Source of the DNA: Acidobacteriota bacterium | GTDB lineage: Bacteria > Acidobacteriota > Vicinamibacteria > Vicinamibacterales > JAKQTR01 | Assembly: GCA_040752275.1 (NCBI GenBank) | Contig: JBFMFH010000101.1 | Location: 62,813-126,812, forward strand | Length of the DNA stretch: 64,000 bases | Direction of reading: 5' to 3' | Part shown: piece by piece, positions 6,301 through 30,994 of the stretch | Layout of the letters: every line of letters begins with the position of its first letter | Position numbering within the stretch: the first letter of the stretch is position 1 | Made by a program: the position numbers and the translations under genes | The notes under the pieces: generated by a model | Database searches by the model: none | The model's input: the letters and a program-made list of their open reading frames with translations, nothing else | What the model was told of the DNA's origin: nothing

Positions 6301-6559
6301 GAAGACGTGGCGAGACGAAGAGCTGGTGCGCCCGCTGTCGGGTCTTGGATACCGGCAGTATCCCAGACTGCGCGAGAATGTGCAGTCAGTGGCTGGCTAC
6401 GTCAATCGGGGCTTCAAAGCACCGAACGAAGGCGAGAAGCTGCGCATGAAGGAACTGGTTGACGAGACAGCCGCGGCCGAGAGGACGCTCGCGGCCATCG
6501 AAGGCGGCGAGATCGCGGCGATCAACGCAGCGATGAAGGGGGAGCCGCGGATACGGTGA
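3392..6559 (+). CDS. secreted BNR/Asp-box repeat protein (sortilin/VPS10-like, annotated glycosyl-hydrolase-like in relatives)
   Basis: Signal peptide 'LSALAAALAAGFALALAA'. More than 10 Asp-box motifs of the form SxDxGxxW ('TTDGGKSW','SSDGGGSW','TRDGGKSW','TTDYGGTW'). Confidence 0.8.
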   Translation: MLMRTHRLSALAAALAAGFALALAAHGPGEVAAQGPSSSPAAALKSLQWRSIGPTAQTGRVSAVAGIPGDVNTWYVGAAAGGVFKTTNNGVSWTALFDEQPNVSIGDIAIAPSNPNVIYVGTGEGNPRNSASFGEGVFKSIDAGGHWTHVGLKDADKIARLRIDPRDPDVVYACVLGGAWGPTEERGLFKTTDGGKSWHKILYRNERTGCSDVDIDPTNGNIVYAGLYTFRRWAWYFDSGGGDTAVYKSSDGGGSWTRLSGPEADRGLPKGPMDRIGIGVARSNPNVVYVISETTSEGEIWRTDDAGATWRMVNKDPNINFRPFYYSDIRVDPQHPNTVYSLSGPLLKSEDGGRTFTRIGNSTHGDHQAMWIDPTNSNRILSGDDGGFQVSYDAGATFDVLNNIPFTQFYNVDYDLRIPYHLCGGLQDNGTWCGPSQTPGAQGTPKSEWQNVGGGDGFFAVPDLTDPDLVYNNLQGGVISLTNRKTRASWGVNPYPGGIGSSGQWMAPQKYRFNWNAPIVLSPQDPMTVYYGGNVLFRTTDRGHSWEVISPDLTTNDKEKQKSSGGQIVTDNTAAEFHCTIISIGPSPLDANLIWVGTDDGNVQVTRDGGKSWTSIFAHAPGLKPSAWINKVEPSRFDKATAYVSASHWQDGDYTPYFYRTTDYGGTWTKITDGLLPKGWSHVIREDPKNRDLLYAGTENGLYASWDRGENWVSIRNNMPAAPVRDIKIHPRDNDIIVATHGRGLYILDDAAPFQQVTAAVKSEAYLFPVRPAIRWAGGSGMFRLNERDWIAPNPPAGAYINLYLRNAPERPLTITIADKAGRTVRSLRNQRARAGVNRFVWDLRWDNPAAREDPAMADIPVAVRARFGFGSFGPSVLPGEYVVKVAAGGRELTSPVTVMLEPGVTVPQSDLQAQIDAAFAMLDVQKRLNAVIDRIDSLREQLTALDGSLGKQAPPPAVRGLVKQTMTRLKTWRDEELVRPLSGLGYRQYPRLRENVQSVAGYVNRGFKAPNEGEKLRMKELVDETAAAERTLAAIEGGEIAAINAAMKGEPRIR

Positions 6560-6570
6560 CACCAGGAGCC

Positions 6571-6658
6571 GGGATTCGGGATTCGGGAGTCCAAAGTCGC
6601 AGCTCGGACCAGGTCCTGGCCCGGCGCAAGACCCGAATCCCGAATCCCGAATCCCGAG
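6571..6658. repeat. inverted pair of tandem heptamer arrays (GGGATTC x2 + GGGAGTC; CCCGAAT x3), a candidate bidirectional hairpin
   Basis: Read directly: 6571-6591 GGGATTCGGGATTCGGGAGTC and 6632-6658 CCCGAATCCCGAATCCCGAATCCCGAG are reverse complements. They lie between convergent stops at 6559 and 6672. Confidence 0.9.
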
Positions 6659-6671
6659 TCCAGATCCTCGT

Positions 6672-8003
6672 TCAGCGCGAGCGTCTCTTGCGTAGCAGCC
6701 CCTTGAGCACGTCCGTCAGGTCAGGCTTGCCGATGACCTGCAGCTCGTAGCGCACGCGCACCGTTGGCTTCCTGATCGTAATGATTCGATTCAGGTCAAT
6801 CGGCGTGCCGATGATGACCGTGTCGCACGGGGTACGGTTGATGGTCTTCTCGAGGTCCTTGATCTGGTGATTCCCGTACCCCATCGCAGGCAAGAGGGTG
6901 CCGATGCCCGGGTACTTCGCGAAGGTCTCTCTGATTGTGCCGACCGTGTAGGGCCGGGGATCGACGATCTCGGCGGCGTTGAACTTGCCGGCCGCGACGA
7001 TGCCGGCCCCGAACTTCATCTCGCCGTGTGTCAGCGTCGGGCCGTCCTCGACGACGAGAACCCGTCTTCCGGTGATGCGCTCGGGATGGTCGACGAGGAT
7101 GGGTGAGGCGCCCTCGATGATCTGCGCCTTCGTGTTGACCAGCCGGATGTTCGCGCGCAGCGCGTTGATGTTGCCGATGTCCGCCGTGTCCACCTTGTTG
7201 ATGAGCACGACATCGGCCATCCGCAGGTTCGTACCCCCGGGGTAGTAGGTCAGCTCGTTCCCCACGCGCAACGGGTCTGCGACGACGACGTGAATGTCCG
7301 GGCGGTAGAACGGCGTGTCGTTGTTGCCCCCGTCCCAGAGGATGACATCGGCTTCGGCCTGCGCCTGGGCCAGGATGTCGCCGTAGTCGACCCCGGCGTA
7401 GACAATCGTGCCGCTGACGATGTGCGGCTCGTACTCCTCGATCTCTTCGATCGTGCAGTCGTGCTTCTTGAGGTCGGCAATCGAGGCGAAGCGCTGGACA
7501 CGCTGTCTGTCGAGGTTGCCGTACGGCATCGGGTGGCGGATGGCGGCCACGCTGAGGCCGGCGCCGCGCAGCATCCCCGCGATGCGTCTGGTCGTCTGGC
7601 TCTTGCCGGATCCGGTTCGCACTGCGCAGACGGCCACGACGGGCTTCCGGCTCTTGAGCATGGTTGCAGCCGGGCTGAGAAGCTTGAAGTGCGCGCCCGC
7701 CGCATTGACGACCGAGCCGCGATCCAGGACGTAGGTGTACGACACGTCGCTGTACGAGAAGACGACCTCGTCGATCTCCTCCGTGCGGATGATCGACTCG
7801 AGGTCTTCCTCGGCGAGGATCGGGATGCCCTTCGGGTACAGCTTGCCGGCCAGCGATGCTGGATACCGCCGGTCCTCGATATTCGGGATCTGGGTGGCCG
7901 TGAACGCCACGACCTGGTACCGCGGATCGTCGCGATAGACGACGTTGAAGTTGTGGAAATCGCGCCCTGCGGCGCCCATGATCAGGGTTCGGGTGGGTTT
8001 CAT
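6672..8003 (-). CDS. COG2403 / cyclic-2,3-diphosphoglycerate-synthetase-like P-loop protein (candidate arginine-citrulline ATP-coupled enzyme)
   Basis: 443 aa. N-terminus 'IMGAAGRDFHNFN', Walker A 'RTGSGKSQT'. The start is 6 nt after the rocD stop, in an operon with OTC and carbamate kinase. Confidence 0.7.
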   Translation of the reverse strand: MKPTRTLIMGAAGRDFHNFNVVYRDDPRYQVVAFTATQIPNIEDRRYPASLAGKLYPKGIPILAEEDLESIIRTEEIDEVVFSYSDVSYTYVLDRGSVVNAAGAHFKLLSPAATMLKSRKPVVAVCAVRTGSGKSQTTRRIAGMLRGAGLSVAAIRHPMPYGNLDRQRVQRFASIADLKKHDCTIEEIEEYEPHIVSGTIVYAGVDYGDILAQAQAEADVILWDGGNNDTPFYRPDIHVVVADPLRVGNELTYYPGGTNLRMADVVLINKVDTADIGNINALRANIRLVNTKAQIIEGASPILVDHPERITGRRVLVVEDGPTLTHGEMKFGAGIVAAGKFNAAEIVDPRPYTVGTIRETFAKYPGIGTLLPAMGYGNHQIKDLEKTINRTPCDTVIIGTPIDLNRIITIRKPTVRVRYELQVIGKPDLTDVLKGLLRKRRSR

Positions 8004-8009
8004 GGTCCC

Positions 8010-9215
8010 TCAGCCTTCCAGCACTCTCTTCAACCGACCGAAGGCCCAGTCGATCTCCTGGCGCGTGATGACCAGGGGCGGCGCGAGGCGGATGACGCGC
8101 TCGTGGGTCTCCTTGCAGAGCACGCCTTCCTGCATCAGGCGCTCGCAGTACGGCCTGGCCGGGCCGTGCATCTCGACTCCGATCCAGAGCCCCCGGCCGC
8201 GGATGTCCTTGATGGCTGGGCTCACCAAGGTCCGCAGCTTCCCCATGAAGTACTCGCCGAGTTCGGCGGAGCGCTCCACCAGCTTCTCGTCGATGAGGAC
8301 CTGCAGCGCGGCTCTGGCCACCGCGCACGCGAGGGGATTGCCGCCGAACGTGCTGCCGTGGTCGCCGGGCTGGAACACGCCGAGGACCGCCTTGCTGGCA
8401 AGGACTGCCGAGATGGGGTAGTACCCGCCCGAGAGCGCCTTGGCCACGATGATCATGTCCGGCGCGACGCCATCCCATTCGTGGGCGAAGAGCCTTCCGG
8501 TGCGGCCGAGGCCGGACTGGATCTCATCGCAGATGAAGAGGACATTGTTCGCATTGCAGAGGGCCTCGGCCCTTCTCAGGTAGCCGTCAGGTGGAAGGAT
8601 GATGCCGGCCTCGCCTTGGATGGGCTCGACGAGAAACGCCGCCGTGCAGGGGGTGATGGCCGACTCCAGTGCCGCCGCGTCTCCGAATGGGATCACGACG
8701 AAGCCGGGCGTCAGCGGGCCGAATCCTCCCCTGTACTGTTCCTCTGTCGAGAAACTGACGATCGTCGTCGTGCGACCGTGGAAGTTCCCGGCGCAGGCAA
8801 TGATTTCGGCCCTGTCGGCCGGGATGCCCTTCACGGTGTAGCCCCATTTGCGGGCCGCCTTGATGGCGGTCTCCACCGCCTCCGCTCCCGAGTTCATCGG
8901 GAGCGACATGTCGTAGCCCGTCAAGTCGTGGAGCAGCTTGTAGAGCAGCGGCAGCTGGTCGTTGCGGAACGCCCGTGACGTCAGCGTCACCCGCTTCACC
9001 TGGTCCACCAGTGCCTGCATGATGCGCGGGTGGCAGTGGCCCTGGTTGACGGCGGAGTAGGCCGCGAGACAGTCGAGGTACTTCTTGCCATCGACGTCGT
9101 ACACCCATGCGCCCTCGCCGCGCTCGATGACCACGTCGAGGGGAAGGTAGTTGTGGGCACCGTACTTCTCTTCGAGCTCGATGAACTGCTGGCTTGATGG
9201 AACAGCGGACTGCAT
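8010..9215 (-). CDS. rocD: ornithine aminotransferase (class III PLP aminotransferase)
   Basis: '[14 protein letters not shown]', '[11 protein letters not shown]', and a 'KALSGG' PLP-Lys region. I chose the start at ATG 9215 (MQSAVPSS). The longer ORF to 9407 runs through a repeat-containing spacer. Confidence 0.85.
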
Positions 9216-9232
9216 GGCGCACCTTCTGGAAA

Positions 9233-9257
9233 GGGGATTCGGGGTTCGGGATTCGGG
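9233..9257 (+). repeat. tandem heptamer array (GGGATTC, GGGGTTC, GGGATTC, GGG)
   Basis: Read directly in the 176-nt spacer between the ATCase-like gene and rocD. It contains four G3+ tracts. Confidence 0.85.
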
Positions 9258-9391
9258 CGGCCCGCCCCGCTCCCGGGCCCTCCGCCGAACCAAACTCGCT
9301 TCGGCCCGCGGGTGGCCGCGCCCGGGGCCAGGATGGCAGAGCTGTCCGGCTACAAGTCCTCGGGCTTCTGGTTGCGCGGTCCCAGCATGGA

Positions 9392-10306
9392 TCATTCCTC
9401 GTCCCACAGGAGTGTCAGCAGGGCCATCCGGATGAACAGGCCGTTCTGGGCCTGCTTGAAGTAGAGTGCCCGCGGGTCATCGTCCACGGCCTTGTCGATC
9501 TCGACCGTGCGCGGCAGGGGGTGGAGGATCATCGCGTCGGGCTTCATCCGTCTGAGCAGGCGCGTGTCGATCGTGTAGCGCCCGAGCGAGGTCCGGTCGG
9601 CAACGCGATCCGGACGGATCCGTGTCTGATAGATGACATCCACGCCGCCGACAATCGACTCCACGTCGGTATGGAGGTCGTACCATACGTCGTGCTCGTC
9701 GAGGTGATCCAGGATGTCCTGCTGCATCTGGATTTCGGGCGGGCTGACGAAGTGGATCTTCACGCGCTCGAACTTGCTCAGCAGGTACGCGAGGGATCGG
9801 GCGGTCCGGCCCTGATCCAGCTCGCCGACGATGGCGATGGTGAGGCCGTCCATCGTGCGGCGTTCCCGGTAGATTGTGTAGAGATCGAGCAACGCCTGGG
9901 TGGGGTGCTGGCCGCCGCCGCCATCGCCGGCGTTGATGACCGGCACCGCCGAGACCCGCGCGGCGCGCTGTGCGCCACCGGGCTCGTTGTGTCGCAGCAC
10001 GATCACATCCGAGTAGCCCGCCATGATCCGGATCGTGTCCTCGAGGCGCTCCTCGGCGACCTCCGAGGAGAAGATGCGGGCGTGCTCCGTCGAGAGCACG
10101 CGCCCGCCGAGGCGGTACATGGCTGCCTCGAAGGAGAAGCGCGTGCGGGTCGACGGCTCATAGAAGAGCGACGCCATCACCCGGCCGGCATAGTCACGCG
10201 TGCCGCCGCGGGCCACGATCCGCTCCATCTGCCCGGCGCGATCGAACAGCTCCAACAGGAGCGGCACGGTGAACTGCTGCGATTCGAGGACGTGGGTCAG
10301 TTTCAT
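9392..10306 (-). CDS. pyrB: aspartate-carbamoyltransferase-type transcarbamylase catalytic chain
   Basis: '[11 protein letters not shown]', 'HPTQALLD', 'HPLPR', and no SMG loop. At 304 aa this is the ATCase pattern, unlike the OTC pattern of the neighbouring gene. Confidence 0.75.
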
Positions 10307-10317
10307 AGGAACTTGCC

Positions 10318-10476
10318 AGAAGACAGGAGACAGAATACAGAAGACAGAATCACGTCGAGAGCCGCTGGACGCGGCTCCTTCTCTCTGGGGTCATGCCTCA
10401 CCCGCTGACCGCGGCGCATGCCTGTCAAGTAGATGCTCCCCATTCTGTCTTCTGTCTCCTGTATTCTGTCTTCTCT
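10318..10476. repeat. inverted pair of purine-type heptamer arrays (AGAAGAC/AGGAGAC/AGAATAC x5 versus their complements) flanking a GC hairpin
   Basis: 10318-10352 reads AGAAGAC AGGAGAC AGAATAC AGAAGAC AGAATCA. 10442-10476 reads ATTCTGT CTTCTGT CTCCTGT ATTCTGT CTTCTCT. An internal hairpin GAGCCGC-tggac-GCGGCTC lies at 10359-10377. Confidence 0.85.
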
Positions 10477-10488
10477 TCCCCTCGTGCG

Positions 10489-11430
10489 TCAGTCCATCAC
10501 AATGTGCGTTCCCGCCTCGCCGCGCACCGCGTCCAGCAGTTGCTCGTACGACGTGATGATCACCTCGCGGCCGCCGGCGCGCAGAAACCGCAACGCCGAG
10601 TCGATCTTCGGCCCCATGTTCCCCGGAGGGAACTGGCCCTCGTCGTAGTGCCGCTGCATCTCGGAGACGGTTGCCCGACCGATGGGCCGCTGGCTGGGCT
10701 TCTTGAAGTCCAGATAGACGCGGCTCGCATCGGTCGAGATGACGAACAGATCCGCTCGCAGTCTCGACCCGAGCAGGGCCGAGGCCCGGTCCTTGTCGAT
10801 GACGGCCTCCACACCGCGCAGCCCGCGGCCGGTTCGAACCACCGGTACACCGCCGCCGCCGGCGGCGATGACGATGGCGCCGGCGGCGATGAGCTGCCTG
10901 ATGACCTCCTCCTCGACGATCTCGAGCGGCTCGGGCGAGGGCACCACCCGCCGATACCCCCGGGCTGCGTCCTCGACGACGTTCCAGCCCAGTTGGCTGC
11001 GCCGGACCGCCGCCTCTCGGGCGGAGTAGAACGGGCCGACTGGCTTGGTCGGCCGATGCATGGCCGGATCGTCCGGTGACACGACCACCTGGGTGAGCAT
11101 CGTCACGACCGGCGTGTTCAGGCCGGCGAGCCCCAGTTCATGGCGCAGCGACTGCTGCAGGAGATACCCGATCTCACCCTGCGTCGAGGCCACGCAGACG
11201 TCGAGCGGATGACTGTAGACCTGATCGGCTGCCCGCTCGGAGCGCAACAGCGCCGCACCGACCTGGGGGCCGTTGCCGTGAGTCACCACCACGCGGTAGC
11301 CGAGACGCACGATCTGGACAATCGACTCGGCCGTCCGCGCCGTGTTGGCCCGCTGCTCGGGAATCGTGCCCTTCTCACCCGCGCGGATGAGCGAGTTGCC
11401 GCCGACGGCGACCAGTGCAGTGCGGCCCAC
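10489..11430 (-). CDS. arcC: carbamate kinase
   Basis: 'ALVAVGGNSL' and 'VVTHGNGPQVG'. 313 aa, starting 7 nt downstream of the OTC stop. Confidence 0.9.
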   Translation of the reverse strand: MGRTALVAVGGNSLIRAGEKGTIPEQRANTARTAESIVQIVRLGYRVVVTHGNGPQVGAALLRSERAADQVYSHPLDVCVASTQGEIGYLLQQSLRHELGLAGLNTPVVTMLTQVVVSPDDPAMHRPTKPVGPFYSAREAAVRRSQLGWNVVEDAARGYRRVVPSPEPLEIVEEEVIRQLIAAGAIVIAAGGGGVPVVRTGRGLRGVEAVIDKDRASALLGSRLRADLFVISTDASRVYLDFKKPSQRPIGRATVSEMQRHYDEGQFPPGNMGPKIDSALRFLRAGGREVIITSYEQLLDAVRGEAGTHIVMD

Positions 11431-11437
11431 GAGCCAC

Positions 11438-12367
11438 CTACTGCATCAGCTCGAGCATGATGGCCTTCTGCGCATGCAGCCGGTTCTCGGCCTGCGGGAA
11501 GACCACCGAGTTGGGCGAATCGATCACCTCGTCGGTCACCTCGTCGCCGCGATGGGCCGGCAGGCAGTGCATGAACAGCGCATCGGGCTTGGCCCGGCCG
11601 AACAGCGCTCCATTCACCTGATACGGACGGAACACCAGCCTGCGCGCGTGTGCCTCGGCTTCCTGGCCCATGCTGGCCCAGACGTCCGTGTACACGACGT
11701 CTGCGCCGGCGACGGCCTCCGCCGGGTCGTTGGTGACCACGCACGTCGACCCGGTCGCCGCTCCATGCTCCCTCGTCCAGGCCGTGACCTCCGCCTTCGG
11801 CTCGTAACCCCTCGGCGTGCCCACGGTCATGTGAACGCCGAAACGGGCCGCCGCGAACATCAGCGAGTTGGCCACGTTGTTGCCGTCACCGACATACGCC
11901 ACCTTGAGGCCCGCAAGCGTGCCCTTGTGCTCGAGGATGGTCAGGTAGTCGGCCATCGCCTGGCACGGGTGACTGAAGTCCGTGAGTCCGTTGATGATCG
12001 GGATCAAGGCGTGCTCCGCCATCTTCTCCACGATGTCGTGACCGAAGGTGCGGATCATGATGCCCTGCACCATCCGCTCGAGGTTCTTGGCCACGTCGTA
12101 CACCGACTCCCGCTTGCCGAGGTTGATCTCGGCCGGCGACAGGTACACCGAGAACCCGCCCAGTTGCTGGATGCCGACATCGAAGGTGACCCGTGTGCGC
12201 AGAGAGGGCTTCTCGAAGATGAGGGCGAGCGTCTTGCCCTTCAGCGCCGCGCCAAAGTCAGCGGGATTGGCCTTGATGTCCTTCGCCAGGTCGAGAAAGT
12301 GCTGCAATTCGTCCGTGGTGAAATCGCGGATCGTCAGGAAGTCCTTGACGCGCATAGCGGTCTCCAT
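11438..12367 (-). CDS. argF: ornithine carbamoyltransferase
   Basis: 'KPSLRTRVTF', 'HPCQAMAD', the SMG loop 'DVWASMGQE', and 'HCLPAHRG'. Confidence 0.9.
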   Translation of the reverse strand: METAMRVKDFLTIRDFTTDELQHFLDLAKDIKANPADFGAALKGKTLALIFEKPSLRTRVTFDVGIQQLGGFSVYLSPAEINLGKRESVYDVAKNLERMVQGIMIRTFGHDIVEKMAEHALIPIINGLTDFSHPCQAMADYLTILEHKGTLAGLKVAYVGDGNNVANSLMFAAARFGVHMTVGTPRGYEPKAEVTAWTREHGAATGSTCVVTNDPAEAVAGADVVYTDVWASMGQEAEAHARRLVFRPYQVNGALFGRAKPDALFMHCLPAHRGDEVTDEVIDSPNSVVFPQAENRLHAQKAIMLELMQ

Positions 12368-12504
12368 GGGGAGTCAGTGGCGGCATCCGTTCTCCAGGCA
12401 GCCAGCATGTCGGGCCGACAAGCCGTCTCGTCTCTCTGGAACGGAAGGGGCGAGCGAGGCGAGAAGCCGGGGTAAAGACCCAGCACTCCCATTCTACCCC
12501 AGCG

Positions 12505-12521
12505 CCGAATCCCGAATCCCG
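12505..12521 (-). repeat. short heptamer array (CCGAAT CCCGAAT CCCG, which is GGGATTC on the minus strand)
   Basis: Read directly in the divergent gap between the OTC start and the menF start. Confidence 0.7.
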
Positions 12522-12542
12522 TACAATGGACCGAACGCCGCC

Positions 12543-13607
12543 GTGTCGAGCCCCACCTGTTTCGGATTCGTGCAGACGGAGCCGGCCTCATTCCTGTGTC
12601 TGGAGGGGCGGCTGCGGCCTGCCACACACGGCGATCGCGACACGCCCGCGCTGTACGCCCCGGCCTTCGATGAGTCGCCCAACGGCGCTTGGCTCCGCGC
12701 TGAAGACGCGCGTCTGGAAGAGGTGCCTCACGCGACCTGGCTCGTCCGGTTTCCCCCGCCGGCGGATTCGCCGCCGCCCGTTGCCTGGGGCGAGCCCGAC
12801 GAAGAGCGGTTCCGCCACGCCTTCGCTCGCCTCCGCGATCTCATCGCTCGTGGCGTCCTGCAGAAGGGGGTCCCGGCCAGCCGGATCGTCGCCGCGATCG
12901 AGCCAGGCGCGGCCGAGACGCTGTTCGGGCACCTCCTCCGACGCGTGCCGGAACAGCCGGCGGCGCTCATGGCCTACGGGTTGTGCCGGCGCGATCCGAC
13001 GACGGGGCGTCTCGTCGAGTTCATGCTGGGCGCGACCCCCGAGGTCCTCTTCGACCTCCACGACCAGCATTGCCTCCGGACCATGGCCGTAGCCGGCACC
13101 CGGTGGTCGTCGATCGGACCGGATGTGCTGCAATCGAGCGCCAAGGACCGTGACGAGCACCAGTTCGTCGTCTACGATCTGATCAATCGCCTGGCCGCAT
13201 GGGGCAGCGCGTCCGTGTCGGGAACCATCGTCCGGTCATTCGGTGACTTGGAACACCTCGTCGCCGAGATCAGCCTCGAGGCGAGGCGGCCGCTGGTGTT
13301 CGAGGAAGTCGCGCGTGAGCTGCATCCGACTCCCGCCCTGGGTGTCTACCCGAGAAATCAGGCCGGCCTGGCGTGGCTGTCTGACCTCGACCCCCGCGGT
13401 GAGCGGCACAGGTACGGTGCACCCTTCGGCATCAGCGTGCCGGCCAGACCCAGCCGGTGCGTCGTGGCCATCCGCAACGTGCAGTACCGGCGGGGGGAGT
13501 TGAGCATCTGGGCGGGCTGCGGCGTGGTGGCGCAGAGCCGGTACGAGGAGGAGTGGCAGGAGGTGCTCGACAAGATGCAGACCGCGAGGGTGATGTGGGG
13601 CCTGTAG
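12543..13607 (+). CDS. menF: isochorismate synthase
   Basis: Chorismate-binding C-terminus 'ELHPTPALGVYP', 'GAPFGI', 'IWAGCGVV'. The start is uncertain (GTG 12543 or 12570). The long ORF from 12048 overlaps the OTC gene. Confidence 0.75.
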   Translation: MSSPTCFGFVQTEPASFLCLEGRLRPATHGDRDTPALYAPAFDESPNGAWLRAEDARLEEVPHATWLVRFPPPADSPPPVAWGEPDEERFRHAFARLRDLIARGVLQKGVPASRIVAAIEPGAAETLFGHLLRRVPEQPAALMAYGLCRRDPTTGRLVEFMLGATPEVLFDLHDQHCLRTMAVAGTRWSSIGPDVLQSSAKDRDEHQFVVYDLINRLAAWGSASVSGTIVRSFGDLEHLVAEISLEARRPLVFEEVARELHPTPALGVYPRNQAGLAWLSDLDPRGERHRYGAPFGISVPARPSRCVVAIRNVQYRRGELSIWAGCGVVAQSRYEEEWQEVLDKMQTARVMWGL

Positions 13608-15253
13608 CGTGCGCGCCGGGCGGTCGGCTGGCGGGCCTGAACGAAGCGCTCGCCCGGGAAGTCGTCGAACGCCTGTGGCAGGCCGGCGTCAGGACATTCG
13701 TGGTCTGCCCGGGCGGACGCGATGCGCCGCTTGTGGAATCGCTCGAAGGCGTCGGCCGGGAAGCGGCCGAGGTGGTCCACTTCTTCGACGAACGGAGCGC
13801 CGCGTTTTTCGCCCTCGGACGGACGAAGCGCGATCGGTGCCCGGCCGCCGTCGTCACGACTTCTGGAACCGCGGCGGCGGAACTCCTGCCGGCCATGATC
13901 GAGGCCTACTACGAGGGCGAGCGCCTGATTGCCGTGACGGCGGACCGGCCTGCGCGGTTTCGCGGCACCGGAGCGCCGCAGGCCATCGACCAGCGCGGGC
14001 TCTTCGGCTCGCACGTGGTTCGGAGCATCGATCTCGACCGGGCTGGCACCGACTGGTCGCTCGCCGGGGTGCCGGGCACGGTTCACGTCAATGTCTGCTT
14101 CGAGGAACCGCTCCTCGACGGCTGGCAGGGAACGCCGCTTCTGCTGTCGCCCGCCGGATCGTCGGCCGGGCACACCCCCTTGCCGGAGGGGATGGACCGC
14201 CCGGCGGCGGTGCGGGTGCAGGGCCGCGAGGGTTGCACCGAGGTCGTGCGCACGTTCCTCCGGGCCCATCGGAGGCCGCTCGTCGTCCTCGGAGCGCTCC
14301 AGGACCCCACCGATCAGGAGGGGGTTCGGGACTTCTGTCTGGCCCTCGGCGCACCCGTGCTCGCGGAGGCGAGTTCCCACATGTGGGGCAGGGTGGAACC
14401 GCTGATCCTGCACGGACGCGAGGCGTCGGCCCAGGCCCTCGTGGACGCCGGGCGCGTCGGGTCGATCCTGCGAATCGGTGACGTTCCGTCGTTCCGCGTC
14501 TGGCGGGATCTCGAGGAACGCACCGAGATCCCCGTGCTGTCGGTGTCGAGACGGCGCTGGCCCGGCCTGACACGAGGGGAGTGCATCCAGGCCGAGCCGG
14601 ACCGGCGGTTGCCTCTCCCGCGGGAGGTGCCGACGACAACGTGGTCCCCTGAGGAGACACACGAGATCGTCGCCTCGGACCGCGAGCGCGGCGAGCGCAT
14701 GGCAGCGCTGTTGGCGGAGTACCCCGCAAGCGAGCCGGCCCTGGTCGCGCGACTGTCGCGCGCCATTCCCCGCGGATCCTCCGTCTACCTCGGGAACAGT
14801 CTGCCCATCCGCGAATGGAACCAGTTCGCGGCACTCGAAGACCGCGCCTTCACGATGCGCGAGAGTCGAGGTGTCAACGGGATCGACGGGCAGGTATCCA
14901 CGTTTCTCGGGACCGCGGAGCCGGATTGTGAGAACTGGGCCGTCGTGGGGGATCTGACCGCGCTCTACGACCTCTCGGCCCCCTGGGCGCTGCGCTACCT
15001 GGAGGGCATCACGGTTCGAATTGTCGTCGTCAACAATGGGGGCGGCCGGATCTTCGGGCGGCTCTTCGCGAACAAGAACTTCCAGAACCTGCACGAGACG
15101 GGATTCGAGGGGTGGGCGACACTGTGGTCGATCCCATGGATGAGCGACACGCGCGCCCCGGATGACGAGCCGGCCGCCATCATCGAAGTGCGCCCCAGCG
15201 CCGCCCAGACCGAGGCCTTCTGGGCAGCCTGGGGTGCGCGACGATCGTACTGA
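13595..15253 (+). CDS. menD: SEPHCHC synthase (2-succinyl-5-enolpyruvyl-6-hydroxy-3-cyclohexene-1-carboxylate synthase)
   Basis: ThDP-enzyme N-terminus 'VVCPGGRDAPL' and 'TTSGTAAAELLPA'. GTG 13595 overlaps the end of menF. Confidence 0.8.
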   Translation: MGPVACAPGGRLAGLNEALAREVVERLWQAGVRTFVVCPGGRDAPLVESLEGVGREAAEVVHFFDERSAAFFALGRTKRDRCPAAVVTTSGTAAAELLPAMIEAYYEGERLIAVTADRPARFRGTGAPQAIDQRGLFGSHVVRSIDLDRAGTDWSLAGVPGTVHVNVCFEEPLLDGWQGTPLLLSPAGSSAGHTPLPEGMDRPAAVRVQGREGCTEVVRTFLRAHRRPLVVLGALQDPTDQEGVRDFCLALGAPVLAEASSHMWGRVEPLILHGREASAQALVDAGRVGSILRIGDVPSFRVWRDLEERTEIPVLSVSRRRWPGLTRGECIQAEPDRRLPLPREVPTTTWSPEETHEIVASDRERGERMAALLAEYPASEPALVARLSRAIPRGSSVYLGNSLPIREWNQFAALEDRAFTMRESRGVNGIDGQVSTFLGTAEPDCENWAVVGDLTALYDLSAPWALRYLEGITVRIVVVNNGGGRIFGRLFANKNFQNLHETGFEGWATLWSIPWMSDTRAPDDEPAAIIEVRPSAAQTEAFWAAWGARRSY

Positions 15254-15255
15254 CA

Positions 15256-16026
15256 GTGGTGGCGACGTCAGGACCGTACCGCATCGTGGCCCTGCATGGG
15301 TTTCTGGGAGGTCCGGACGACTGGCTCCCGCTCAGGTTGCGTCTGCCGGGCGTCTGGTGGTCGCCCCTCGACCTGTGGGCGATCGTCGGGCGCGCCGAGG
15401 TGCGCGACTGGTCGACGCTGGGCGGGGCGCTCGAGGCGGAGATTGCCTCCGCCGCCGCGGCCGAGCCGAGGCTTCCGGCAGTCGTCCTCGCGTACTCCTT
15501 CGGTGCTCGAATGATGCTGGCCTCGCCCGGCGCTGCGTCTCGCGTGGCCGGCACGTGTCTGGTGTCCTGCAATCCTGGGCTGAAGGCCGAGGACGGCGGC
15601 GCCCGTGAGGCCCGGCGGGTATCCGACGAGACCTGGGCGCAACGCCTGCTGGACTGGGAGCCGGCGGCGCTCTTCCAGGCATGGAACCGCCAGCCGTCGC
15701 TCGCGTCGAGTGTGCCGATACCAACGGGCAGCAACTTCCCCGCCGCGCGGGTGACGCTGGCCAGGGCCATGCGGTCGTTCTCCCTCGCCGGCCAGCCCGA
15801 TTGGCATGGGCGCCTCCGTGCGTGGCCGGGCCCTGTACTCGTCGTCGCGGGGGAACGCGACGGGAGATATGCTGCTATCGCTTCAGGGTTCGAGGGGGCC
15901 GGCGGGCACCTGGACGTGCGAGTCGTCTCCGGAGCGGGACACCGGGTGCCTTGGGATGCCCCGGATCAGTTCGTCGAGACCCTTGCGGCGTGGGCAGAGG
16001 GCCTCATCAGCAGGAGTCGCGCATGA
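15256..16026 (+). CDS. menH: SHCHC synthase (alpha/beta hydrolase)
   Basis: '[10 protein letters not shown]' and a nucleophile-elbow-like 'AYSFGAR'. It sits between menD and menB. Confidence 0.7.
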
Positions 16027-16853
16027 AGGGCAGCGAAGCCGCCTGGCAGACAGTTCAGACGTTCAAGGAGATCCTCTTCGAGAAGACCGGCGACGGGATT
16101 GCGAAGATCACGATCAACCGCCCGCACCGACGCAACGCGTTCACGCCGCTGACCGTGCAAGAGATGATCGAGGCGTTCCAGGTGTGCCGCGAGGATCCGT
16201 CCGTTGGCGTTGTCATCCTGACTGGCGCGGGAATGAAGGCGTTCTGCTCCGGAGGCGACCAGCGCGTGAGGGGGGAGCAGGGCTACGTGGATGACGGGGG
16301 CGTGCCCAGGCTGAACGTGCTGGATCTGCAGAAGCTCATCCGCGGCCTGCCGAAGCCGGTCATCGCCATGGTTGCGGGCTACGCCATCGGCGGCGGCAAC
16401 GTCTTGCAGGTCGTGTGCGATCTGACGATTGCGGCAGACAACGCGATCTTCGGCCAGACGGGCCCGAAGGTCGGATCGTTCGACGGCGGGCTCGGCTCGA
16501 GCTACCTGGCGCGGATCGTCGGGCAGAAGAGGGCGCGGGAGATCTGGTACTTGTGCCGCCAGTACAGCGCCCAGCAGGCTCTCGAGATGGGGATGGTGAA
16601 CGCGGTGGTGCCGCTGGCCGACCTCGAGGCGGTCACGCTGCAGTGGGCGCGCGAGATGCTCACGCATTCCCCGCTGGCGCTCCGCTGCCTGAAGGCCGCG
16701 CTGAACGCCGACTGCGACGGTCAGCTCGGGTTGCTGGACCTGGCCGGAAACGCCACCCTCCTCTACTACATGAGCGAGGAGGCGCAGGAAGGCAAGAAGG
16801 CCTACCTCGAAAAGCGGAAGCCGAACTTCAAGAGGTTTTCCCGCCTGCCGTGA
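16023..16853 (+). CDS. menB: 1,4-dihydroxy-2-naphthoyl-CoA synthase (crotonase family)
   Basis: '[12 protein letters not shown]' and 'FCSGGDQ'. ATG 16023 overlaps the menH stop (ATGA). Confidence 0.9.
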
Positions 16854-17743
16854 GCGAGAAGACCCGCGTCCACCCGTGGCTCCTGGCCGCCCGGCCCAGG
16901 ACGCTGACCGCCAGCGTGGCGCCTGTGCTGGTGGGAACCGCGCTAGCGCGTGGCCTCGGCCAAGAGGCCGTGGCCTGGCCCCTCGCGGTCCTCGCGCTCG
17001 CGTCGGCCACGTTCATCCAGATCGGGACGAACCTCGTCAACGATGCGGCTGACTTCGAGCGGGGTGCCGACACGCACGATCGACGTGGGCCGATCCGGGC
17101 GACGCAAACTGGCCTGCTCACGCCACGGCAGGTCAAACTGGGCGCGGCAGGGGCCTTCGCGTTCGCGGCCCTGCTCGGGATCCCACTGCTGTACGCCGGC
17201 GGCACCCCGATCCTCGTCATCGGCGTGCTCTCGATCATCGCCGGCTGCGCCTACACGACCGGGCCGATGCCCCTCGCGTATGTCGGGTTGGGTGAGATCT
17301 TCGTCCTGCTGTTCTTCGGCCTGGCCGCCGTGAAGGGGACGGCGTATGTCGTGGCCGGGCAGGCCTTCACGCCGTGGGCGGAGCTGGCGGCACTGCAGGT
17401 CGGGCTGCAGAGCGCGACGCTGCTCGCCATCAACAACCTGCGGGATGCAGCCGGCGATGCACGGGCCGGCAAACGCACGCTCGCGGTCCGATTCGGCCCG
17501 CGGTTCGGACGATGGGAGATCGCCGCGCTCGTGGTCGGGCCGTTTGCGGGCGGAGCCGGCTGGTGGGCGGCCGAACGTGCGCTGGCGTCCTGGCTGCCGC
17601 TCCTATGCCTCCCTCTGGCATGGACACTCCTGCGCCGGGTGTGGAGTGAGGAGCCGGGCACCCGCTCCAATCAACACTTGGCGATGAGCGCGCGACTGCA
17701 GCTGGTGTTCGCCTCGCTCCTGGCGGCCGGGCTCGTCCTGTAG
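16850..17743 (+). CDS. menA: 1,4-dihydroxy-2-naphthoate polyprenyltransferase (UbiA family)
   Basis: '[14 protein letters not shown]' (the NxxxD motif) in a multi-TM protein. GTG 16850 overlaps the menB stop. Confidence 0.8.
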
Positions 17744-17753
17744 GGCTCTCGAG

Positions 17754-18986
17754 ATGATCGCCGTCCTGGACATGGGCTCCTACCTGTCGGAGGCGACGGC
17801 GTGGCCGGACTGGGAGGACTCCGGGACCGTCCTGATCCCGCATCCGGCCATGCGGGAACAGGTCCCGGCGCTCTTGGGGGCGCTCTCGCGGACCGATCTG
17901 CCTCCGGCGCACCTGCTCGTGGCCACCTCCGGCAGCACGGCACCGAGAGAGGGCGGCGTCCGACTCGTGGCGTTGTCGCTCGAGGCATTCCTGGCCTCGG
18001 CCGTGGCAGTCAATGCGCATCTCGCCGCCGCGCCTGGCGACATCTGGGCCCACGCCCTCCCGGTGTTTCACGTCGGGGGTCTCGGCATCCTCGCGCGCGC
18101 ACGCCTCTCGGGGAGCCGGGTTGTCGCCGCCGTCGATCAGAAATGGAGTGCGCACCGCTATCACGAGCGCGTGGCGTCGTCAGGTGCCACCCTGAGCGCG
18201 CTGGTGCCATCGCAGATTCACGACCTCGCGTCGGCCGGACTGCGCGCGCCATCGTCGCTGCGCGCGGTCGTCGTTGGCGGAGCGCGCCTCGATCCGTCGC
18301 TGTACGGCGCGGCGTGCGCGCTGGGCTGGCCGTGCCTGCCGAGCTACGGCTTGACCGAGACGTGCAGCCAGGTGGCGACGGCGAGGCCCGGGTCGGCCGG
18401 GGAGGCCTATCCAAACGCGCTCCCGATCCTGCCTCATGCCGACCTGAGCCTCGGACCGGACGGCCGCATCCGCGTCTGCGCCTCGTCGTTGCTGACCTGC
18501 TACGTGAGTGTCGATCCGGCTTCCGGAACGGCGCACGTCGACGATCCAAAGCGCGGCGGGTGGTTCGAGACGGAAGATCTGGGTCGGTTGCATGCCGGTG
18601 GCATCGAAATCCTCGGCCGCGCGGACGACATGGTGAAGGTGCTTGGCGAGCTGGTCAGTCTCGCGGCGGTTGAGGGGGCCGTCGGCTGCTGGCTGGACGA
18701 CGCCGGTCATCGGCGATCGCTGATCGCAGACTATGCGGTTGTCAGCCTGCCGCACCCTCGGCTGGGCTCCGAACTCGTCCTTGCCGTGGTTCCTGCCCCG
18801 GGCCCGGGTGCCGGCGGCCTTCGGGCCCGCGACCTGGCTGCCGGCCTGAAGGGTCGGCTCGGCCCGCTGGAATGCCCGTCCCGACTCATTGTGGTCGACG
18901 TCATCCCCCGCACCGCGCTCGGGAAGGTCCGGCGCGCCCGCCTTGCCGACCACTGTCGCTACTGTCGCGGGTCGGCAATCATATGA
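17754..18986 (+). CDS. menE: o-succinylbenzoate-CoA ligase-like adenylate-forming enzyme (short form)
   Basis: 'VATSGSTA' and 'SYGLTET', with 'GRADDMVKVLGELV'. It follows menA directly. Confidence 0.7.
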   Translation: MIAVLDMGSYLSEATAWPDWEDSGTVLIPHPAMREQVPALLGALSRTDLPPAHLLVATSGSTAPREGGVRLVALSLEAFLASAVAVNAHLAAAPGDIWAHALPVFHVGGLGILARARLSGSRVVAAVDQKWSAHRYHERVASSGATLSALVPSQIHDLASAGLRAPSSLRAVVVGGARLDPSLYGAACALGWPCLPSYGLTETCSQVATARPGSAGEAYPNALPILPHADLSLGPDGRIRVCASSLLTCYVSVDPASGTAHVDDPKRGGWFETEDLGRLHAGGIEILGRADDMVKVLGELVSLAAVEGAVGCWLDDAGHRRSLIADYAVVSLPHPRLGSELVLAVVPAPGPGAGGLRARDLAAGLKGRLGPLECPSRLIVVDVIPRTALGKVRRARLADHCRYCRGSAII

Positions 18987-19387
18987 CGTTCAAGCCTGGC
19001 GCGAATGGTGGCCGGAATCGGTGTCTTCTGGAACCGGCCATCGACGAAGACATGAACGGTGCGGGTCTCGGCGCACAGGTGTGGCGATGGATCGCCGGTG
19101 TCGAGGAAGCGCGTGACCAGGTCGAACGACGACTCCGAGAGACGGCCCACTCCGACTTCGGCGACAAACGGCCGACCCGGCCGCAACGGGCGGTGAAAGG
19201 TCGCCTCCGCGTGCTTGATCGGGACCAGCCAGTCTGGCGCGGCGAAGTACTCGTCCCAGGTCACGCCCAGGGCGGAGACGACGAAATCCTCGTAGACCTC
19301 GTGCGCCAGTTGGAGGATCCGCCCGAAGAAGAGGATCCCGCGGAAGTCAGCTTCGTGGAACCGAACTGACACGGGGCATGTGAACAT
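18959..19387 (-). CDS. hotdog-fold acyl-CoA thioesterase (4HBT/YbgC type), candidate DHNA-CoA thioesterase
   Basis: 'VSVRFHEADFRGILFFGR'. It converges on menE and overlaps its 3' end by 28 nt. I chose ATG 19387 as the start because the longer ORF to 19414 enters a palindromic repeat. Confidence 0.65.
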   Translation of the reverse strand: MFTCPVSVRFHEADFRGILFFGRILQLAHEVYEDFVVSALGVTWDEYFAAPDWLVPIKHAEATFHRPLRPGRPFVAEVGVGRLSESSFDLVTRFLDTGDPSPHLCAETRTVHVFVDGRFQKTPIPATIRARLERHMIADPRQ

Positions 19388-20753: not shown

Positions 20754-20817
20754 GGGATTATATCTTCCGGGATTCGGGATTCGGGATTCGGGATTCGGGA
20801 AGCGGGATTCGGGAAGC
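20754..20817 (+). repeat. tandem heptamer array, 7 contiguous units (GGGATTC x4, GGGAAGC, GGGATTC, GGGAAGC) plus an upstream GGGATTA
   Basis: Read directly. The contiguous run is 20769-20817 and begins 4 nt after the polA stop codon. Confidence 0.95.
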
Positions 20818-28266: not shown

Positions 28267-29792
28267 TGCAGGGCGACTACAGCCCGGACGCCCTCGGCCA
28301 GCTGCTGTTCCGGCGCCAGTTCTACCTGGGACCGCGGCACCTGGACCAGTTCCCGTCGTGGACACGCGTGGGCGTCGGCGACACCTATTGCCTGACCGCT
28401 CACCCCGATCTGGGCGTGGCCCACGCGACAGACGGGCGCAAGTCCGTAACGCTCGTTGGGTACATGCTCGACCCCGCCGAGCCCCACGCCGGCAACGCGG
28501 ATGTGGCAGAAGCCCTGGTGCGGAAGCTCCAAAGTTGCCGCGGGTCCTGGGTGCACACGGCTGACTTCGGAGGTCGCTGGATCCTCATCGTGCATGATGG
28601 TCGCGACACCGTGCTCTTCCACGATGCCGCGGGACTGCGATCGGTTCACTACGCACGCGCCGGGGAGACGGGCGCGACGGTGTGCGCGTCGCGACCATCG
28701 TTGATTGCGGAAACGCTGGGCCTCGAGAGGCATGAGGAGGCCTGGGACTTCGTCACGTCGCAGGACCAGGACGAATGCGACGTGTACTGGATGCCCGGCG
28801 ACACCGCCCTGTACGCGCGGACGCGCTGCCTGCTCCCCAACCACTACCTCGACCTGCGAACCGGTGAGGCACACCGATACTGGCCTGACGCGGACCTGCG
28901 AAGCCTGCCTCTCGCCGACGCCGTGGCCGAGAGCCTTCGTATGCTGCGTGGGCTCGTCCTGGGCGCCCGGCACCGTTCACCCCTGGCGCTTTCGATGACC
29001 GCGGGATGGGACAGCCGGCTGATGTTGTCGCTGGCGAAGGCACTCGGCCGTGACCTGTACTGCTTCACGCTGGCCTACCCGGGATCCGAGAACTCCCGCG
29101 ACGTGAGGGTCCCCGCCGCGCTGCTCGCGCGCCTTGGGCTCGAACACACCGTCGTCGGGTACCCGGCGCAGATCAACCTCGACTTCAAGACCACCTACCA
29201 GAGGAACGTCGCTGCAGAGGGCCACGCCTACTGTGCGGACGCGCAGGCTCTATACGAACACTATCCGGCCGGGCGGATGTGCATGACCGGCGACGTTGCC
29301 GAGATCGTGAAGTGCCACTACAGGCCGCCGGCGGGACGGGAAACGCCGGCGACGGCCACGGGTCTGGCAGAGCTGTGCGGCATCCGCGCCCATCCCTTCC
29401 TCTTGAACGCCTTCGAGACCTGGCTCGAGGGAGCGGTGCCGCGGAACATTCCCCTCCTGGACCTCTTCTGCTGGGAGCAGTTCGCGGGGCGGAAGCAGGC
29501 GCTGATCAGGTCGCAGTACGACATCGTTCACGATTCGTTCGCGCCGCTGAACTGCCGCACGCTCCTCGTGACGATGCTTTCGGTGAGCGAACGGTACAGG
29601 TGTGGACCCGACTTCGCGCTCCTGAGAACGCTCGTCGAGGAGCTGTGGCGGGAGACACTGTCGGTGCCGGTGAACCCCGACGAACGCACGCAGGCCAAGC
29701 GCGTCATCAGAGGCGTGCTCGATGCCTTGAAGTTGTACGACCGGGTTCCCGAATCCCTCAAGGAGCTCGGCCGGCGTGTCATGATGCGGTGA
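28263..29792 (+). CDS. asparagine-synthetase-B-like adenylating enzyme lacking the N-terminal Cys nucleophile
   Basis: The start 'MMQGDY' has no Cys2. An AsnB N-domain-like segment 'GRWILIVHDGRDTVLFHDAAGLRSVHYA' and a PP-loop-like 'LSMTAGWDSRL' are present. ATGA overlap with the upstream gene. Confidence 0.65.
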   Translation: MMQGDYSPDALGQLLFRRQFYLGPRHLDQFPSWTRVGVGDTYCLTAHPDLGVAHATDGRKSVTLVGYMLDPAEPHAGNADVAEALVRKLQSCRGSWVHTADFGGRWILIVHDGRDTVLFHDAAGLRSVHYARAGETGATVCASRPSLIAETLGLERHEEAWDFVTSQDQDECDVYWMPGDTALYARTRCLLPNHYLDLRTGEAHRYWPDADLRSLPLADAVAESLRMLRGLVLGARHRSPLALSMTAGWDSRLMLSLAKALGRDLYCFTLAYPGSENSRDVRVPAALLARLGLEHTVVGYPAQINLDFKTTYQRNVAAEGHAYCADAQALYEHYPAGRMCMTGDVAEIVKCHYRPPAGRETPATATGLAELCGIRAHPFLLNAFETWLEGAVPRNIPLLDLFCWEQFAGRKQALIRSQYDIVHDSFAPLNCRTLLVTMLSVSERYRCGPDFALLRTLVEELWRETLSVPVNPDERTQAKRVIRGVLDALKLYDRVPESLKELGRRVMMR

Positions 29793-29884
29793 CAACCGGC
29801 GACGACAGGCAGCCCGCTGTCTGCGTCGGGAAGGAAGCACAGCCGGAGCGTCCGTCCGCTCGGAATCGGTATCGTGATCATCGC

Positions 29885-30994
29885 GTGAGGAGCATCCCGG
29901 TGTCCAAGCTCGTGAGACGTGCGCTCTATCCCGCCGTGTCCCGGCTGTGTGCGCACGCCACGCTTGTCGAGGGGCGACTGAAGGGAACCGAGACGCCGTT
30001 TCGCTGCCTGTTCGTGGACAATTCGCGCTTCGGGGAGTACCTGACGGGCCGGATGTACGACACGCTGCCGGACCGGCTGGAGAAGAAGCGCATCTGGATT
30101 CCCGCGCTGCGACGGCGTCTCCTGAGCCGGCGCGACGGGCATGATCTCTGCGTCGCCGTCCTCCCGAGGTTCTACGAAGCCCTGTTTCGGGGACTCTATG
30201 ACTACCGGACCACCGAGACGGTCAGACAGGTCATCGACACGTCGGGCTCCTGGGACGACGTGAAGAGCAGGTTCTCCAAGAAGAAGCGGCAGGTGGCGAA
30301 CAACTTCGAGGCCAAGTCCGGACTCGGCTACCGCCTGTCTCACGAACCCGGCGACCTCGAGTTCTTCTACCACCGGATGTTCGTGCCCCATATCACCAGG
30401 CGGTACGGAGAACTCGCGACGATCGACTCCTACGTCGAGATGCAGCGGTTCTTCCGCCGGGGCGTGCTGCTGTTCGTGACCAAAGGAGGCCAGGCGGTCG
30501 CCGGGGCCCTGAGCCTGGTGGAAGATGGCGTGCTGAGATTCCGCCGGACCGGGGTCCTCGACGGCGACGAGTCGCACGTCGACGGCGGTGCCCAGACCGC
30601 GCTCTACTACTTCCAGCTGAGGTACGCGCAGGAGCACGGCCTTCGCGCGGTGGACACGATGATGAGCGCGCCGTTCCTGAACGACGGCGTCTACAGGCAC
30701 AAGAGAGAGTGGGGCGCGGTTGTCCTCCCCGATGACGAGACGCGCACCTGGGTCTACGTCTTCGGCGCAACGCCGTCCGAGAAGACCGCGCGTTTCTTCG
30801 AGGACAACCCGATGGTCGTGCACCGGGATGATGGGATGAAGGGGATGATCGGGATCTCGGGCGACGCCGCCCCGTCACCGGCCGCGATCAACGAGCGGGT
30901 CCGTCGCTATGAAGCGACCGGTCTACGGGGCTTCCTCGTGGTGACGCGTGCGGAGGTGCTGGCCGCGCCTCAAACCCGGCCCGGCACTCACTAG
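29885..30994 (+). CDS. FemAB/CelD-like GNAT-fold protein
   Basis: 'GGQAVAGALSLV...FRRTGVLDGDE...GAQTALYYFQLRYAQEHG'. GTG start (alternative 29900). The long ORF from 29279 overlaps the upstream gene. Confidence 0.6.
   Translation: MRSIPVSKLVRRALYPAVSRLCAHATLVEGRLKGTETPFRCLFVDNSRFGEYLTGRMYDTLPDRLEKKRIWIPALRRRLLSRRDGHDLCVAVLPRFYEALFRGLYDYRTTETVRQVIDTSGSWDDVKSRFSKKKRQVANNFEAKSGLGYRLSHEPGDLEFFYHRMFVPHITRRYGELATIDSYVEMQRFFRRGVLLFVTKGGQAVAGALSLVEDGVLRFRRTGVLDGDESHVDGGAQTALYYFQLRYAQEHGLRAVDTMMSAPFLNDGVYRHKREWGAVVLPDDETRTWVYVFGATPSEKTARFFEDNPMVVHRDDGMKGMIGISGDAAPSPAAINERVRRYEATGLRGFLVVTRAEVLAAPQTRPGTH

Follow-up and report, generated by a model that had tools for sequence, protein, structure and literature searches.

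The window analysed here is a 64,000-nucleotide (64-kb) stretch of contig JBFMFH010000101.1 from an Acidobacteriota bacterium whose DNA is rich in guanine plus cytosine (GC, ~67%). On its minus strand, five consecutive open reading frames (ORFs) span 12367 to 6672 and encode an ornithine transcarbamylase (OTC), a carbamate kinase (CK), a transcarbamylase of the aspartate transcarbamylase (ATCase) branch, here called X, an ornithine aminotransferase (OAT) and a protein of 443 amino acids (aa) that resembles the arginine synthetase ArcE. This operon probably serves to gain ATP from arginine breakdown through the arginine synthetase pathway, to which it would add one step; what the enzymes do, which way the flux runs, whether the genes are co-transcribed and what X contributes are inferred from the sequence. 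At the level of the operon, the locus represents a new variant of a pathway that is already known. The five genes are as follows.

11438-12367, minus strand: OTC of the arcB/argF type, 309 aa, canonical (NF001986, 434 bits, cutoff 306; TIGR00658, 405 bits, cutoff 281)
10489-11430, minus strand: CK (arcC), 313 aa, GTG start (TIGR00746, 375 bits, cutoff 358)
9392-10306, minus strand: X, ATCase-branch transcarbamylase, 304 aa (TIGR00670, 288 bits, cutoff 237)
8010-9215, minus strand: ornithine--oxo-acid aminotransferase (OAT, rocD type), 401 aa (TIGR01885, 539 bits, cutoff 378)
6672-8003, minus strand: ArcE homologue, 443 aa, with the P-loop RTGSGKS (62% identity to the Thermococcus protein P0287)

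Genes were assigned with curated profile models (NCBIfam and TIGRFAM, with their cutoffs) and with Pfam, and OTC, CK, X and OAT each exceeded a curated model cutoff. A first-pass annotation, made from the sequence alone, had placed five co-directional genes at 12367 to 6672; all of them were found there, with identities from profile searches. The motifs that it named are likewise present in the translations: OTC carries FMHCLP and DVWASMG, thus both the HCLP and the DxxxSMG motif, and the 443-aa protein carries GSGKS. Orthologues of OTC (70-91% identity) occupy the equivalent position in related loci. OAT reached 623 bits with NF003145, under the cutoff of 656, and was also under the cutoff of the argD model; its start was set at the ATG at 9215 (the listed ORF reaches 9407) because the homologues are 401 aa long. 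The spacers measure 7 nucleotides (nt) between OTC and CK, 182 nt between CK and X and 176 nt between X and OAT, and the 6-nt gap reported earlier between the OAT stop and the start of the 443-aa gene was read again from the sequence (tga gggacc atg). The cluster is bounded upstream by a divergent menaquinone operon (menF, by a Chorismate_bind match and by synteny with the closest related locus, L001) and downstream by a convergent BNR/sortilin gene, with a strong hairpin in between.

The 443-aa protein had no Pfam or NCBIfam match at E ≤ 0.001, and gave only a weak match to cobW (E 0.0014). More than 8000 homologues were found, many of them labelled "predicted GTPase" by JGI, and an identical protein in NCBI (P0001) bears the name "cyclic 2,3-diphosphoglycerate synthase". 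In Thermococcus kodakarensis, TK2200, formerly annotated as a hypothetical protein or putative GTPase, was identified as the arginine synthetase ArcE, with the reaction arginine + ADP + Pi <-> citrulline + NH3 + ATP (Michimori 2024 PNAS, PMC11032458). The enzyme was described in 2024, and the literature searched covers it in one hyperthermophilic archaeon only. Both the enzyme and its reaction had been given essentially correctly in the first-pass annotation. It had also stated that arcE often neighbours OTC and CK genes; the published account is that arcE is sometimes encoded beside arcB/arcC (PMC11032458).

In our comparisons TK2200 was represented by P0287, the representative of a 90%-identity cluster, and the two are linked through their matching termini. 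The cluster has 201 members from Thermococcus and Palaeococcus, and P0287 was reached via a fragment ending in KNCEKFKK, whose search returned Thermococcales proteins. The primers dTK2200inF/inR, printed for the ends of the TK2200 ORF in a 2026 Front Microbiol supplement (PMC13260591), encode MAEKKKKRVLI at the start and KNCEKLKK plus stop at the end. P0287 starts with MAEKKKKRVLI and ends with KNCEKLKKE, so that the first 11 and the last 8 primer-encoded residues match. An exact search of species-representative genomes with the TK2200 forward primer gave no match.

Aligned with P0287 over 437 aa, the window protein was 62% identical, with 0 gaps (572 bits). Because this identity is full-length and gapless, the 443-aa protein is taken as a member of the ArcE family and not as a mere relative. 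RTGxGKS, RHPMPYG, WDGGNND and EDGPTLTHG, which are invariant in bacterial and archaeal ArcE members, are all present in it. The nearest solved folds to its AlphaFold2 model (pLDDT 90.4) were LpxK (4EHY) and cyclic 2,3-diphosphoglycerate synthetase (cDPGS); Foldseek gave E = 3e-9 and TMt 0.66 for LpxK, the same structure that the ArcE authors superimposed on their TK2200 model. Sequence comparison thus makes ArcE a close homologue of the window protein, whose predicted activity is that of an arginine synthetase.

In the route that we propose, ArcE (6672-8003) would convert arginine, ADP and Pi to citrulline, NH3 and ATP, and OTC (11438-12367) would cleave citrulline by phosphorolysis to ornithine and carbamoyl phosphate. 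CK (10489-11430) would then draw a second ATP from carbamoyl phosphate, while the RocD-type OAT (8010-9215) would turn ornithine into glutamate semialdehyde/pyrroline-5-carboxylate (P5C) and lead its carbon into glutamate. Arginine deiminase (ADI) would not be needed, and X would probably use the carbamoyl phosphate made by the operon, or add to it by releasing more, its partner substrate being something other than aspartate. The same route from arginine through citrulline and ornithine to glutamate semialdehyde, with two substrate-level ATP, had been suggested in the first-pass annotation, and ArcE homology and the partner genes support it as the best reading. The OAT step is not part of the published arginine synthetase pathway. 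Because ArcE, unlike ADI, gives little driving force (equilibrium constant, Keq, about 10), removal of ornithine by OAT would pull the unfavourable OTC phosphorolysis.

The Roc pathway of Bacillus subtilis comprises the arginase RocF, the OAT RocD and the P5C dehydrogenase RocA. The operon resembles it in the predicted removal of ornithine towards glutamate by a RocD-type aminotransferase and differs in that arginase and urea are replaced by a citrulline route with ATP gain, with no rocA or rocF in the cluster. With the ADI pathway, arcABC(D), it would share a catabolic OTC and CK and the formation of ATP from carbamoyl phosphate. ArcA of that pathway would be replaced here by ArcE, with an extra ATP, and whereas the ADI pathway has an arginine/ornithine antiporter, this operon has none, and ornithine would be transaminated rather than exported. 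The three enzyme families are those of the T. kodakarensis pathway, with ArcE (TK2200, here at 62% identity without gaps), ArcB (TK0871) and ArcC (TK2158) (PMC11032458, PMC13260591). The expected chemistry is also alike, as predicted from the genes: two ATP per arginine, no ADI and carbamoyl phosphate as a shared intermediate. T. kodakarensis is a hyperthermophilic archaeon whose locus numbers suggest three unlinked genes, whereas the host here is a high-GC bacterium with one operon. The operon also adds a RocD-type OAT, while ornithine is a proline precursor in T. kodakarensis, and a non-canonical ATCase-like gene. The name 'ArcE' has also been published for an unrelated arginine/ornithine antiporter (Saccharibacteria papers), which makes for a name clash.

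Recurrence of the gene module in other genomes

The surroundings of arcE and of X were examined in two sets of loci. The arcE set consisted of the best 80 of at least 600 matches in species-representative genomes, some on short contigs, and covered many phyla at 61-83% identity. CK was found in the fetched flanks of 27 of these loci (directly downstream in 15), OTC in 10, a close OAT in 6 and X in 5, and 50 loci had none of these. The X set consisted of 80 metagenome loci from a scan for close X relatives, and its counts refer to contigs long enough to tell. Here CK lay immediately upstream of X in 55/55 loci and OAT immediately downstream in 53/54; OTC was present upstream in 40 of 42, and ArcE belonged to the cluster in 31 of 38.

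The order OTC-CK-X-OAT-ArcE was found with different flanks in four Acidobacteriota loci (L001, L003, L007 and L009) and in an Ignavibacteriaceae locus (L021); the flanks of L001 are those of the window. Acidobacteriota clusters almost always begin with OTC. Three Gemmatimonadota-type loci (L006, L118 and L122) carry CK-X-OAT-ArcE and lack OTC, both in the cluster itself and for several kb upstream, the upstream neighbour in L006 being a divergent dipeptidase gene, and a Bacteroidota genome carries ArcE-OTC-CK-X. The arrangement is not due to chance: an identical order of the genes was found again, between differing flanks, on dozens of independent contigs. A search around the module in other phyla revealed no conserved transporter, regulator or P5C dehydrogenase partner, and the flanks differ.

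Seven X clusters (L160, L164, L168, L132, L144, L159 and L161; OTC-CK-X-OAT where visible) had no arcE in the fetched flank. The scanned flanks of the first three contained no ADI, and the genes there are unrelated. In the window itself, a Pfam scan of the longer ORFs with coding-like third-position GC found no amidinotransferase or ADI anywhere in the 64 kb, confirming the earlier statement that the cluster has no ArcA-like gene. An ADI hidden in the window, or beside the OTC-CK-X-OAT clusters without arcE, was thus rejected, as none was present in the scanned ORFs or flanks.

A catabolic pairing different from that of the window was observed in Thermoanaerobacterium sp., a Firmicute (L008, 1-7700 and 8001-9311). 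There, arcE lies beside ornithine-fermentation-type genes (OrtA, a PALP enzyme, a DapB_N-type dehydrogenase and Ala_racemase_N), and its neighbourhood also includes a peptidase M20 and a Na/Ala symporter.

Publications already cover the enzyme family and its reaction, how widely it is distributed in bacteria and its occasional linkage to arcB/arcC, so the observation is less novel than was first held. The first-pass annotation had called the route uncharacterised in this lineage. This is true experimentally, but arcE has already been reported in many bacteria, and Acidobacteria are listed among its carriers (PMC11032458). The literature searched contains no description of a fixed OTC-CK-X-OAT-ArcE module or of a CK/ATCase-like/OAT cluster. 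The compact operon in Acidobacteriota, Gemmatimonadota and Ignavibacteria makes the two-ATP route, as arginine fermentation or as a feeder of respiration, testable in bacteria.

Two further observations concern the surroundings of these loci. In the window (12048-19000) and in L001, menF, menD, menH, menB, menA and menE separate the arc operon from polA and the CCA-adding-enzyme gene, whereas in L003 and L007 the latter two stand immediately before OTC. The five-gene module is thus stable, and the rearrangement around it is local. A DUF1015 gene by serA/serC lies a few kb from the arc cluster in L001 (17401-18618), L003 (16974-18191) and L007 (15323-16543); the unrelated Thermoanaerobacterium locus L008 also has a DUF1015 gene ~5 kb from arcE (14747-15994), which may be coincidence.

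X, an altered ATCase-type transcarbamylase

X is the least explained part of the operon, and the interpretation in the first-pass annotation had passed over it. In addition to its TIGR00670 match, it scored at the border of NF002032 (263.5 bits, cutoff 263). It was aligned with 9 X orthologues, with the Arabidopsis, M. jannaschii and human ATCases and with the E. coli ATCase sequence, the numbering of which agrees with Table 1 of the transcarbamylase review. The carbamoyl-phosphate site (S52, T53, R54, T55, R105, H134, Q137, P266 and L267) is intact in X and the 9 orthologues, and R167, R229, HPLP and FxExSTR are retained in X. In these respects, and in its 54% identity to Arabidopsis PYRB, X belongs with the ATCases, and its best solved relatives are all ATCases.

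The second-substrate site is different. ATCases are defined by the RxQxER motif of the 240s loop, in which Q231 anchors the aspartate beta-carboxylate, and by Lys84, which comes from the adjacent subunit (PMC4581275). In the window X, position 84 is Ala and position 231 is Arg, with RIRPDR instead of RxQxER; the orthologues have E, D, Q or R at position 84, where ATCases have Lys. Among the 120 closest X clusters, the 240s motif was RIRPDR in 97, RIRPER in 17 and RIQPER in 1, and HPLPR was present in 120/120, with no Lys. Position 231 is L, D or E in X orthologues that are more distant and belong to arcE clusters. Across the X clade, positions 84 and 231 are paired as E/R, as R/E or as Q/D followed by R at 232, with E/L in one sub-clade. 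The acid/base pairs suggest a possible cross-subunit salt bridge, or a site for an ammonium or zwitterionic substrate. No description of this altered site (loss of Lys84 and of the Gln of RxQxER) was found in the literature searched.

A known offshoot of the ATCases, ureidoglycine transcarbamylase (UGTCase), has H(T/S)LP and keeps the 80s-loop Lys (PMC4581275). This identity was ruled out for X, which has HPLPR rather than H(T/S)LP and has lost the Lys; its gene context, too, is CK and OAT rather than pyr or purine-catabolic genes. Because two defining ATCase features are lost and the UGTCase motifs are missing, we regard X as a descendant of the ATCases in which the site for the second substrate has been rebuilt. 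Tentatively, X could be a transcarbamylase with a second substrate other than aspartate, and the CK-X-OAT core an undescribed carbamoyl-transfer step tied to ornithine/arginine catabolism. Judged from the 84/231 pairs, candidate substrates would be ornithine/citrulline or another diamino acid, especially where the cluster has no OTC; in the Gemmatimonadota-type clusters without OTC, X itself may cleave citrulline.

We consider it doubtful that X is instead a working aspartate carbamoyltransferase that passes arginine-derived carbamoyl phosphate to pyrimidines, although such a role would be compatible with arginine breakdown by the operon. Such a supply is published for the arcE/arcB pathway of T. 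kodakarensis, and the score of X above the TIGR00670 cutoff (288 vs 237), its solved relatives, its similarity to plant PYRB and the ATCase residues listed above would all agree with it; the occurrence of E84/R231 in some members and R84/E231 in others might likewise amount to a relocated positive charge. Against this stand RIRPDR together with A, E or D at position 84, and the variability of position 231 across the clade (R, L, D or E). Moreover, X never adjoins pyr genes and sits constantly between CK and OAT, and a housekeeping pyrB would be awkward to regulate in an arginine operon. It is because K84 and Q231 are missing that the likelihood of a working ATCase was lowered. X is a concrete candidate for a new transcarbamylase specificity, a question raised in the transcarbamylase review (PMC4581275).

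In the databases, X is systematically named 'aspartate carbamoyltransferase' (P0419 and other matches) despite the two lost ATCase-defining residues. This is one of two systematic annotation errors exposed by the operon, the other being the labelling of ArcE as "cyclic 2,3-diphosphoglycerate synthase" or 'GTPase'.

Direction of flux and alternative readings

RocD-type OAT is a catabolic ornithine enzyme, as known from the roc genes of B. subtilis. Together with the ornithine-fermentation neighbours of arcE in Thermoanaerobacterium, the peptidase genes that flank several arcE clusters and the remark of the ArcE authors that organisms with ArcE tend to be users of amino acids and peptides, it suggests, indirectly, that the operon runs in the catabolic direction.

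Several points weigh against an ATP-yielding breakdown of arginine. With a Keq of about 10 at 80 °C, the ArcE reaction lies close to equilibrium, and the authors themselves raised a biosynthetic role of ArcE in some bacteria (PMC11032458). No characterisation of a bacterial arginine synthetase was found in the searchable literature. Neither an arginine transporter or antiporter nor a regulator or P5C dehydrogenase is present in the window cluster, and the ATCase-like gene fits a supply of carbamoyl phosphate at least as well as it fits pure catabolism. The two ~180-nt spacers, one with a very stable hairpin, could split the operon, the co-transcription of which is presumed. Finally, arcA, argG/H, carAB and a canonical pyrB were absent from the 64-kb window and may lie elsewhere in the genome.

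Some of these points would also suit an anabolic operon for arginine synthesis that is acetyl-free and independent of carbamoyl phosphate synthetase (CPS) and ArgG/H. In it, OAT would make ornithine from glutamate semialdehyde, CK would make carbamoyl phosphate from NH3, CO2 and ATP, OTC would make citrulline and ArcE would make arginine from citrulline, NH3 and ATP, with X as an ATCase leading carbamoyl phosphate to pyrimidines. The ArcE reaction can run both ways, and in vivo the enzyme sustains arginine synthesis in citrulline-fed T. kodakarensis; in addition, a biosynthetic ArcE was proposed for bacteria without ArgG/H (PMC11032458). The gene set is internally consistent in that all five genes, the ATCase-like one included, make or use carbamoyl phosphate or ornithine, and the window has no argG/H or carAB; the absence of ArgG/H is, however, not demonstrable from 64 kb. 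We nevertheless find this reading improbable. RocD-type OAT and arcC-type CK are, by general knowledge, normally catabolic, and the OAT equilibrium lies on the P5C side. In addition, X is without the ATCase-defining residues, the CK of T. kodakarensis could not replace CPS as a source of carbamoyl phosphate (published), and the occurrence of ArcE was reported to be unrelated to ArgG/H and correlated with amino-acid catabolism. Arginine breakdown is thus retained as the preferred direction.

The identity of the 443-aa protein as a cDPGS, with an incidental arginine-gene neighbourhood, is effectively refuted: NCBI gives that name to the identical P0001 and to many homologues, and cDPGS was the top match by PDB profile and by fold, but a single-sequence phmmer search of all PDB chains returned no cDPGS at E ≤ 1, the family profile matched cDPGS at 63 bits over part of the protein, structural alignment gave 14% identity and a TM of about 0.45, and the association of the gene with CK, OTC and OAT extends across phyla. 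Because the Thermococcus orthologues of the proven arginine synthetase carry the same name, "cyclic 2,3-diphosphoglycerate synthase" is best seen as a misleading annotation carry-over. The cDPGS of Methanothermus fervidus (PDB 8ORK/8ORU, also 9SXB), the source of the database name, shares remote homology and the P-loop architecture with the window protein and differs in being detected by profile only and in its substrate and biology. The profile and structure comparison proposed in the first-pass annotation thus placed the protein on the ArcE side, apart from authentic cDPG synthetases.

Intergenic repeats and surrounding genes

Four intergenic features lie in or beside the operon.

12368-12662, minus strand: divergent intergenic region from the OTC start to the estimated menF start, presumed operon promoter from sequence reading
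10318-10474, no strand assigned: long hairpin with 33-nt arms of AGACAGA/ATACAGA-type heptamers, filling the CK-X spacer (RNA fold -79.5 kcal/mol, z = -4.2)
9234-9254, no strand assigned: GGGATTC-type heptamer repeat, mRNA strand CCCGAAUCCCGAACCCCGAAUCCC, immediately 5' of the OAT start
6565-6661, no strand assigned: hairpin with 27-nt arms made up of GGGATTC heptamers, in the space where arcE and the BNR/sortilin gene converge (RNA fold -70.4 kcal/mol, z = -6.0)

The menF start was estimated from a 314-aa homologue in L001. The presumed promoter region holds a GGGATTC heptamer repeat (12507-12520) and a TAGAAT hexamer resembling a -10 element; a scan of 6400-12800 for consensus promoters and terminators gave nothing above chance, and Rfam had no match across the whole window. 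The hairpin at 10318-10474 is of a type that occurs once in the window. Because L001 has no hairpin and a spacer of 84 nt, it looks like a recent insertion in the operon, and it may be an RNA processing or attenuation site. The hairpin at 6565-6661 is probably a bidirectional terminator.

GGGATTC tandem arrays are frequent in the window, with 21 matches vs 0.64 expected. In the regions checked they are mostly intergenic, and they often form inverted pairs that fold into long hairpins. Three arrays are in or beside the arginine operon (6565-6661, 9234-9254 and 12507-12520), and others were found at 20769-20817, 62379-62413, 23539, 29744 and 57161. The repeat also occurs between OAT and arcE in L089 (3671-3687), L097 (7929-7945) and L152 (2096-2112). 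From its sequence distribution, it looks like a lineage-wide element similar to repetitive extragenic palindromic (REP) sequences.

The remaining genes of the window include serC, the men operon, the CCA-adding-enzyme gene, polA, an exopolysaccharide cluster, a two-component system, an inositol-phosphate synthase and an ABC transporter. The large exopolysaccharide biosynthesis cluster (~29000-52100) encodes GNAT/FemAB-like proteins, a polysaccharide deacetylase, GT2 and GT4 glycosyltransferases, a Wzx-type flippase, a Wzy_C ligase, Poly_export/SLBB, a CbiA-type ATPase and Bac_transf, as well as large ORFs without a Pfam match (29279-30994, 46892-48268 and 48273-49760).

A last observation concerns P0257, a Thermococcus-type ArcE fragment from Logan assemblies (31 contigs) in which P->L/F, A->V, H->Y, T->I and S->F replacements recur systematically. 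These replacements correspond to C->T changes of the coding strand. The fragment looks as if it had been assembled from bisulfite-converted or deaminated reads and had then become a cluster representative in the protein database.

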